UHGV virus genome: UHGV-0107401
Length of the DNA: 19,872 bases
Source: a virus
Reading direction: 5' to 3' (one strand)
The position numbers and the translations under genes are program-made. Below, piece after piece: positions 15,773-16,912 of the stretch (positions are counted from its first letter, which is position 1; every line of letters starts with the position of its first letter). The notes below the pieces were generated by a model that saw only the letters and a list, made by a program, of their open reading frames with translations, was not told the DNA's origin and ran no database searches.

Positions 15773-16371
15773 GCAACCTCACTTCTGCTGTTTCGCAGTT
15801 TTTTAAGTTTCTGTTGATACTCCGCCTTGATGGCCCTGCACTCTTCGACAGTCCAGCGATAGCGGTTATGGTTTGATTCGATTTCCTCTACTGCTTCCTG
15901 CCCGATGCGGCTAATCAGTTCGACGCGATACGGAACGAGATTTCCGCTTTTGTGCTGGTTGCACACCACGCATTGCTTGTGAATATTGCGTTCATCAAAT
16001 CGGAGTTGAGGTGCCGCAGCAGTTGTCCGGTAATGTCCGGCATCCCACTGAGCAGACGTGAGCGTTCCGCACGAGATACATGGTAAGTCGCGGTCTCTTT
16101 CTCTGATGAAGGCGTTTACGGCTTGTTGGGCTTGTTTAATCCAGTAACTGCGGGGCTTTAAGGCGAGTTTTCGAATCTTAAGTTTATCTTTCTGTTTCTG
16201 CTCCTCTCGTCGTCGTTTCTTCTCTGCTGCTTTTTCCGCTTTTTCGCGTTCTTTACTTCGTCGTTCGAGTGCTATCTTGGTTCCACAAATCTCATTACAC
16301 CAATATTGATTTTGATATTTTGGTATAAACCATTCATTGCAACATTTACATTTCCTTCGATAGATTCGCAT
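15769..16371 (-). CDS. ninG: NinG / Rap recombination-promoting nuclease (201 aa)
   Basis: Track ORF 15769..16431 trimmed to ATG at 16369-16371 ([11 protein letters not shown]...) preceded by AAAGGAG. Basic Lys/Arg/Glu-rich linker and Cys clusters ([13 protein letters not shown]) match lambda NinG as recalled; ATGA overlap with ninI start. Confidence 0.9.
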
Positions 16372-16912
16372 AAGTGCTCCTTTCGTTGCCGGAAAAATCA
16401 CCGTAATACTTATCTCGGGCTTCTTCAGCAACTAGTACCGCTAACTCCAGATCATCAAAGCATCCGAAGTGTTTACTCTTGCCATGGAATCCTAGCCTAA
16501 CATTCCATTTTTTCTGTCGTTTGTGCCAAGTAACCCCTCTGCAACCTGATTTGCTATTCTTTCGGATCCTTATATTTCTTGAATTTTCTATTGGCAGGCA
16601 TTCTCTTAAATTTTCTGGCCTATTGTCGGTCCTAATTCCATTAACGTGGTCAATTTGACCAGCAGGCCAACGATTATGAGTTATGTAAAAAACTAAGACG
16701 TGAGTTTTATATCTACGCCCATCTATCATGATCATTGAATAACCGTTGGAATCAAAAGTTCCAGCAACACTATTTAATGCTATCCTTCCCTGAGTGGGAA
16801 CTTTCCATCTAAATACCCCGGTAGATTTATCGAAACTTAGTAACTCAAATATCCTTTTAACAGTTAAATCTTCTCTTTTACGGTTACATCGTCTTCGCGC
16901 TGGTTTAGCCAT
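16346..16912 (-). CDS. HNH homing endonuclease with AP2-type DNA-binding domain (189 aa)
   Basis: Track ORF 16346..16993 (GTG start) trimmed to ATG at 16910-16912 (MAKPARRRC...) preceded by GGAGG. Homing-endonuclease-type N-terminus (...[17 protein letters not shown]), HNH core [34 protein letters not shown]2-like [33 protein letters not shown]. Markedly AT-rich versus neighbouring nin genes. Confidence 0.8.

Follow-up and report, generated by a model that had tools for sequence, protein, structure and literature searches.

How a gene that begins with the opening codons of ninG, and a complete ninG gene directly behind it, came to stand together in a conserved phage operon is the question raised by positions 15769-16925 of UHGV virus genome UHGV-0107401, a stretch of 19,872 nucleotides that is called the window here. 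The setting is the nin-Q-lysis-packaging region of a lambdoid prophage, in which all genes surrounding the locus lie on the minus strand. The first of the two genes encodes a protein with an HNH nuclease domain and an AP2-type DNA-binding domain, and an earlier interpretation made from the letters alone (the sequence-only reading) had taken it for a selfish endonuclease gene inserted into a conserved nin operon. The comparisons described below indicate that it is probably a homing endonuclease gene of the free-standing kind, lodged in the first codons of a lambdoid ninG and encoding an I-HmuI-like enzyme of the HNH_3 plus AP2 type.

Filled and empty alleles of ninG

The sequence-only reading had proposed that the locus be aligned with lambdoid ninG regions lacking the HNH gene, and this alignment, with the window, Stx1 phage SH2026Stx1, a 41.5-kb replicon of Salmonella Infantis and E. 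coli PK8241 as filled alleles and lambda, HK544, Emek and H-19B as empty ones, yields the exact boundaries of the insertion. The left junction falls between positions 16884 and 16883, after ...CGATGTAA, and the right junction between 16288 and 16287, before TGTGGAACC; between them, 64 bp of lambda-type ninG (roughly codons 10-31) are replaced by an AT-rich cassette of 596 bp. The parts of the locus that define the replacement are as follows.

16913-16925, minus strand: ninF remnant, the final 13 nt of that gene, with the Shine-Dalgarno sequence that originally served ninG (GAGGAAGAAGGCG)
16884-16912, minus strand: captured ninG start, the initiation codon plus eight codons and 2 nt (MAKPARRRC), which opens the endonuclease open reading frame (ORF)
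16288-16883, minus strand: mobile cassette of 596 bp without lambda homology, comprising the endonuclease gene from codon 10 onward and a recoded ninG 5' end

Both sides of the cassette are recognisably those of lambda. In a blastn comparison with lambda (J02459), window positions 16925-16884 agree at 40 of 42 nt with lambda DNA that runs from the end of ninF over the ribosome-binding site into ninG codons 1-10, and the lambda NinG N-terminus on which the sequence-only reading had relied is correct; on the other side, 16287-15769 correspond to ninG through its stop codon at 505 of 519 positions (97.3%). In lambda, HK544, 434 and others, ninF abuts ninG directly and the HNH gene is absent, which bears out the supposed insertion into the nin operon, and EDL933 is also among the empty loci. 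The captured 29 nt show no difference among the five filled loci or in 56 of the 57 IMG/VR loci, and they are the same as the region of ninG codons 1-10 in lambda and HK544. The window keeps nothing of ninF beyond its last 13 nt, and a 38-aa (amino-acid) ORF at 16905-17021 has a NinF-like end (...TEEEGDG).

The endonuclease therefore has no start of its own and is read from the original ninG ribosome-binding site, the ATG and the first nine codons of ninG. Because it uses the original ninG start, carriers with an intact ninF (E. coli PK8241 and a Salmonella replicon, loci L005 and L006, in both of which the cassette follows ninF directly) retain the 8-nt overlap with the ninF stop that is found in empty alleles. 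After the captured start, the ORF lacks a further ATG up to residue 58. A longer, 215-aa form starting from an in-frame GTG at 16993 was rejected, as the extension does not exist in loci with ninF upstream.

The endonuclease ORF and its product

The coding features of the endonuclease are given below.

16346-16912, minus strand: HNH-AP2 endonuclease ORF, ATG at 16912, TAA at 16346-16348, 188 aa
16592-16711, minus strand: HNH_3 catalytic core, residues 68-107 by Pfam coordinates, including D88-H89 and N101, with N110 just downstream
16400-16546, minus strand: AP2-type DNA-binding domain, residues 123-171, from Pfam, phmmer and Foldseek

The HNH_3 domain of the 188-aa protein scores above the Pfam gathering threshold (E 4.2e-11, 42.7 bits against a cut-off of 24.8), and the protein matches PHROG 99 ('HNH endonuclease') at 1.4e-71. 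In alignments with 13-14 homologues of 32-47% identity, residues D88, H89, N101, L102, R103 and N110 are invariant, and the catalytic and metal-binding D-H...N...N residues of the HNH_3 group are conserved. The AlphaFold (AF2) model of the protein has a mean predicted local distance difference test (pLDDT) value of 87.8, with low confidence at residues 1-10 and 180-188. Its N-terminal part has I-HmuI (1u3e_M) as the top Foldseek match in the PDB (probability 1.00, E 0.012, template-modelling (TM) score 0.37-0.40 over 109 columns), the modest fold score reflecting the fact that a single domain aligns. The C-terminal part superposes on plant AP2/ERF domains, namely AtERF1 (1gcc, root-mean-square deviation 1.3 A over 51 columns), WRI1 (7wq5, 2.0 A) and TEM1 (7et5, 1.7 A), each with Foldseek probability 1.00, and phmmer gives a weak match to WRI1. 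A sequence search of the PDB returned a weak AP2 match alone, the likeness to I-HmuI becoming visible through the fold search. HNH-3 and AP2 together form a recognised homing endonuclease family and architecture (PMC10448857, PMC5714182).

The homologues of 32-47% identity cover just residues about 15-175, and the last ~13 residues of the endonuclease are read, in a different frame, through the Shine-Dalgarno sequence and start that now serve ninG. Since the model is also of low confidence at both termini, the two ends, one consisting of the nine residues captured from NinG and the other of the final ~13, look appended in both the alignments and the model. By BLASTP, the endonuclease has no relation to NinG beyond the captured peptide (best E 5.3). 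The gene had been described beforehand as AT-rich, and its G+C content is in fact 39.1% in the HNH body against 48.9% in the remainder of ninG. A promoter scan of 15700-17500 found one promoter-like site, on the opposite strand, fewer than in shuffled sequence; with no such site in or just upstream of the cassette, the gene is presumably transcribed with the delayed-early nin operon.

The rebuilt ninG gene

Downstream of the endonuclease, the following features restore the interrupted gene.

15769-16371, minus strand: ninG (Rap), 200 aa, full length, Pfam NinG E 3.5e-84, profile positions 5-192 of 193
16377-16382, minus strand: new ninG Shine-Dalgarno sequence AAGGAG, read from the sequence, within the 3' tail of the endonuclease ORF and 5 nt before the ninG ATG
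16288-16371, minus strand: recoded ninG 5' end, 84 bp or 28 codons, a candidate self-protecting patch

The two ORFs share 26 nt (16346-16371) in different frames, so that, as had been pointed out from the sequence, the endonuclease ORF overlaps both the ribosome-binding region and the start of ninG, with AAGGAG inside it. The recoded 84 bp have a G+C content of 28.6%, against 49.5% in the lambda counterpart, and are roughly 60% identical to lambda by a count on the multiple alignment, with identity of ~100% resuming right after. The encoded peptide is homologous to lambda NinG residues about 4-31 and retains four cysteines and the EWF and NQxWC motifs. The 3' end of the cassette, with its new strong Shine-Dalgarno sequence, ATG and 28 recoded codons, rebuilds a complete NinG. 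The suspicion that the 5' end of ninG had been displaced or duplicated was thus well placed in respect of a partial duplication: the original start and nine codons open the endonuclease, and a second, divergent but homologous N-terminus opens NinG.

This arrangement bears on the idea of an endonuclease encoded by an intron or intein, or of a diverged tandem duplicate of ninG. Such an origin might be suggested by an ORF that opens with the first nine codons of ninG and by the fact that HNH enzymes such as I-HmuI are often intron-encoded; yet a search of 15700-17500 against Rfam gave nothing at E<=1, neither a group I or II intron nor any other family, which rules out a surrounding intron or other structured RNA, and an intein is contradicted by an ORF that stops at TAA 16346-16348 and a ninG that restarts at 16371 in another frame. 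With a stop for the endonuclease and, in another frame, a separate Shine-Dalgarno sequence and ATG for ninG, expression of the two requires no splicing of RNA or protein. Tandem duplication of ninG was likewise ruled out, BLASTP between the two proteins finding nothing. The whole group of explanations is accordingly regarded as extremely improbable.

The recoded ninG codons 1-28 are always linked to the endonuclease gene. The segment is 100% identical across the four loci compared there; by tblastn, the recoded NinG N-terminus occurs in four carrier records only of the phage collection, with a next best match of at most 62.5% identity; and a 115-nt query over the recoded start was found in 538 of 5426 complete E. 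coli genomes, a count equal to that of the cassette search. One apparent exception, EPSSH018, was checked and is a remnant degraded by an insertion sequence (IS), with part of the HNH gene still there. A degenerate peptide pattern searched in IMG/VR detected carrier contigs only, and no recoded NinG start without the HNH gene. On the best reading of the locus, the recoded stretch would serve the cassette as a self-protecting patch against the predicted cleavage by its enzyme at a putative target site.

Distribution and diversity of the cassette

The cassette is present at >=99% identity in 538 of 5426 complete E. coli genomes (~10%), in 571 copies and up to three per genome, with carriers that include the O157:H7, O111, O26 and O103 lineages; it also occurs in Stx1 phages and in nine Salmonella and one E. 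coli 'plasmid' records. The same 567-nt coding sequence is named 'HNH endonuclease' in RefSeq in hundreds of E. coli genomes, and likewise in Stx1 phage records. The same two junctions recur in E. coli, in Stx1 phages and in Salmonella phage-like replicons, and all 57 IMG/VR loci share them, 56 with at most five mismatches in 596 bp and one with a 1-nt deletion. Lambda-type empty sites are found in 797 complete E. coli genomes, so that the gene is not universal at this position and its empty site is readily recognised, the reverse of what the sequence-only reading had named as grounds for giving up an insertion. In the phage records listed outside this clone, endonuclease identity is 41.5% or less. 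The HNH protein of Salmonella phage 64795_sal3, which aligns from residue 1, was considered as a relative and set aside; its gene sits between primase and helicase genes, in a context unrelated to nin.

Identity between loci is 99.4-100% within the cassette and 93-95% in the remaining ninG, and the outer flanks are unrelated. Clustering the flanks of 61 loci gave 12 types upstream and 11 downstream, which occur in 23 combinations. Nucleotide diversity climbs from about 0.004 inside the cassette, through 0.012-0.03 over the 150 bp that follow it, to 0.065-0.08 at 400-520 bp farther along ninG. Free-standing endonucleases spread with co-conversion of their flanks (PMC2988022), and the diversity gradient together with the 23 flank combinations has the form of a footprint of such spread, to which ordinary mosaic recombination could contribute. 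Taken together, the exact site at which the cassette is present or absent, its AT-richness and near-invariance across many backgrounds, the diversity gradient and the linked recoded stretch of ninG make up the pattern of free-standing homing endonuclease genes.

Of 61 loci, 59 have an intact ORF, one carries a frameshift and one an IS3 insertion, and the ratio of non-synonymous to synonymous polymorphism (pN/pS) is about 0.29 (11 synonymous and 12 non-synonymous variable sites). Purifying selection on the endonuclease is evident from these variable sites. The frameshift, in locus L067 (IMGVR_UViG_2526164629_000012), results from a 1-nt deletion at codon 76 and is likely decay after fixation. 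Two strains that are not related to each other have IS3-family elements at the HNH/ninG junction or beside it, at 2745-3958 of locus L005 (PK8241) and at 1233-2446 of locus L071 (EPSSH018); in PK8241, the new ribosome-binding site of ninG is separated from the endonuclease ORF by precisely this element, which has removed the C-terminal tail of the endonuclease.

Selection for function could also mean that the protein has been domesticated as a nuclease or DNA-binding protein, whether as a recombination partner of NinG, RusA and YbcO, as a weapon against competitors or as an AP2-domain regulator. Besides the purifying selection, the presumed co-transcription and the translational linkage with recombination genes fit such a role, and phages have adopted HNH proteins built in a similar way for their own functions, one example being the HK97 cos-cleavage helper (PMC10448857). 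Against this, most lambdoid phages, lambda included, do without a gene at this position, relatives above 47% identity were not found in other lambdoid contexts, the architecture is typical of homing enzymes, and the exclusion of competitors by cutting their ninG would be homing in practice. Domestication is therefore held to be a poor candidate, with about one chance in ten by our reckoning.

Several observations weigh against a homing endonuclease. The AP2 domain stays below its Pfam cut-off (E 1.8e-4, 22.2 bits against 33.3), and enzyme activity, target site and homing itself are things that we infer. The nin genes of lambdoid phages are mosaic, and ordinary recombination via conserved flanks could move the cassette and produce the gradient. 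Vertical inheritance in lineages of enterohaemorrhagic E. coli (EHEC) such as O157:H7 lies behind much of the 538-genome count, and the O157:H7 copy sits in a decayed prophage with an IS30 remnant alongside. Carrier and near-canonical empty alleles stand together in single O157 chromosomes (H206 and H252 in strain 124; H203 and H251 in ERL04-3476), from which it follows that there is no ongoing conversion in lysogens; this coexistence is expected if the gene, being delayed-early, is repressed in lysogens, and it equally fits an inactive enzyme. Nor did the search for a donor or intermediate relative succeed: among 5.8 billion proteins, it gave 99% clones and then identities of at most 47%; among the GTDB species representatives, a single unrelated match at 39%; and with the 40 aa of the recoded N-terminus as query, nothing but pieces of the same protein.

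An alternative is a passive passenger (a 'moron'), that is an old gene for an inert or non-specific nuclease, moved by homologous recombination in the ninF and ninG flanks and leaving the empty allele uncut. Mosaic exchange at nin gene boundaries is the norm, the same slot holds roi in H-19B and a 590-aa ORF in the window, filled and empty alleles lie within the same chromosomes, and rare variants occur at otherwise invariant residues (P83T, N97T and N101S, in one locus each). A passenger does not readily account, however, for a cassette that is almost invariant over 23 flank combinations next to a ninG differing by 5-7%, nor for the pN/pS value (about 0.29) and the intact ORF at 59 of 61 loci, which indicate that the protein is maintained; and the strict link to a recoded stretch of the host gene, which a self-protecting endonuclease needs, is left unexplained by passive carriage. 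Passive carriage is thus considered unlikely, although it is the stronger of these competitors, and a free-standing homing endonuclease gene is retained as the probable explanation.

Proposed origin and spread

A homing endonuclease gene of this kind would have arisen by a non-homologous join of ninG codon 9/10 to the 5' part of an endonuclease gene, which would have come from an AT-rich donor where it stood just upstream of a divergent ninG homologue; the joining event would have removed the endonuclease's own start. Spread would take place when carrier and non-carrier lambdoid genomes replicate in one cell. The enzyme would then nick or cut the non-carrier near the 5' end of ninG, near codons 9-31 and at or beside the 64 bp that the cassette replaces, and repair by recombination with the carrier would transfer the cassette, along with adjoining ninG sequence of varying length. 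Carriers themselves would be protected, it is proposed, since in them this stretch is both interrupted and recoded. A trace of the original break may survive in the left junction, at codon 9/10 of ninG.

A more speculative extension, offered tentatively and as rather less likely to be right than wrong, is that the cassette represents a distinct lifestyle of homing endonuclease genes within a coding sequence, without intron, intein or split host protein. Such a gene would capture the start of its host gene and return a complete, recoded N-terminal 'mini-exon' with a new ribosome-binding site, and the mini-exon would double as its own resistant target; the codon 9/10 junction would be the fossil of the initial double-strand break, and cutting at ninG could favour exchange of the neighbouring Q-stx region between prophages of EHEC. 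In Stx1 phage SH2026Stx1, ninG lies ~1.7 kb upstream of stx1A.

Gene neighbourhood in the window

In the order of transcription, the genes are the HNH-AP2 gene, ninG, a NinI-type phosphatase gene, a YbcO-like nuclease gene, rusA, the antiterminator gene Q, and those for holin, endolysin, Rz, terminase and portal. Four nuclease genes, for HNH-AP2, NinG/Rap, the YbcO-like protein (PHROG 131 'HNH endonuclease') and RusA, follow one another within 2.4 kb (14471-16912, minus strand), with the NinI-type phosphatase gene between those of NinG and YbcO; NinG/Rap is itself classed as a His-Me finger protein (PMC5714182). Far from the locus, between the portal region and the head genes, a 539-aa ORF (5609-7228, minus strand) has an N-terminal NUDIX domain, which is an unusual location for a NUDIX hydrolase.

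Just upstream of the cassette, positions 17106-17164 hold a perfect hexanucleotide tandem repeat, (AAATAG) x 9.8. A 1801-nt query over this repeat gave matches 1795 to 1885 nt long in E. coli genomes, often split in two, and this range of lengths suggests variation of copy number between strains. In the place of ninF, and divergent from the nin genes, lies a 590-aa ORF (17481-19253, plus strand) of about 31-39% GC, without a Pfam domain and with PHROG 9230 (unknown function) as its sole match; it is also present in Stx1 phage SH2026Stx1, and E. coli O111 11128 has two shorter annotated ORFs there. The repeat and the 590-aa ORF were considered as parts of the insertion and ruled out, since the same cassette follows an intact ninF in PK8241 and in the Salmonella replicon; with ninF intact upstream of the cassette in these other carriers, they belong to a separate event.

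Significance

The cassette provides a clean and experimentally tractable case in the best-understood phage system, with the empty site present in lambda itself. It illustrates that a selfish endonuclease gene can occupy a coding region at no charge to the host gene, by borrowing the start signals of that gene and replacing its N-terminus. An active enzyme would introduce a programmed break into the nin region, a short way upstream of Q and, in Stx phages, also of the toxin genes, and could thereby affect how the numerous lambdoid prophages of EHEC recombine. For annotation, the arrangement accounts for the constant pairing of this 'HNH endonuclease' with this variant of NinG, and for the NinG N-terminal peptide on the endonuclease.

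Comparison with known systems

Free-standing HNH homing endonucleases, HNH-AP2 enzymes, insertions into coding sequences and the annotation of this gene as 'HNH endonuclease' are already known. A literature search found no paper on the ninG cassette, its capture of a start or its replacement N-terminus, and the announcement of SH2026Stx1 is silent on the cassette. The closest parallels in lifestyle are SegF, SegG and MobE of T-even phages ('intronless homing'), which are likewise encoded by stand-alone genes beside conserved genes, present or absent among close relatives, with flank co-conversion and with a neighbouring gene that differs between carrier and non-carrier (PMC2988022, PMC2790892). 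The T-even genes have translation starts of their own, intergenic sites and cut sites that may be hundreds of bp off, whereas the ninG cassette, known here from sequence, takes the start and nine codons of its host gene, brings a replacement N-terminus for it and resides in temperate lambdoid phages.

In domain architecture, the enzyme resembles I-HmuI (PDB 1u3e) and His-Me finger group 2 (HNH_3) proteins with AP2, such as the HNH-AP2 family and the IPA-HNH of ICP1 phages, in its N-terminal HNH_3, its C-terminal AP2 and its D-H/N/N residues. I-HmuI differs in being intron-encoded and in carrying NUMOD and helix-turn-helix (HTH) modules instead of AP2, and any relative found for the ninG-cassette enzyme is at most 47% identical to it. 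The HNH-AP2 family is reportedly the subject of Magnani et al. 2004.

Start capture has a precedent in a lambdoid/P22-like phage, gene 31 of Salmonella phage epsilon34, in which the N-terminus of a resident gene is fused in-frame to an HNH homing endonuclease (PMC2629481). As compared by its published description, that gene differs in its HNH lineage and in its locus, the early left operon, and a replacement host N-terminus is unreported for it. Insertion into a coding sequence without intron or intein, with the host function kept, is likewise found in Aeromonas phage Aeh1, where, according to the summary in PMC2988022 of the work of Friedrich et al. 2007, MobE splits nrdA ('genes in pieces'). 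In Aeh1, by the same summary, the host protein is produced as two halves that come together again, whereas in the ninG cassette a nine-codon stub is donated to the endonuclease and the entire NinG N-terminus is supplied afresh.

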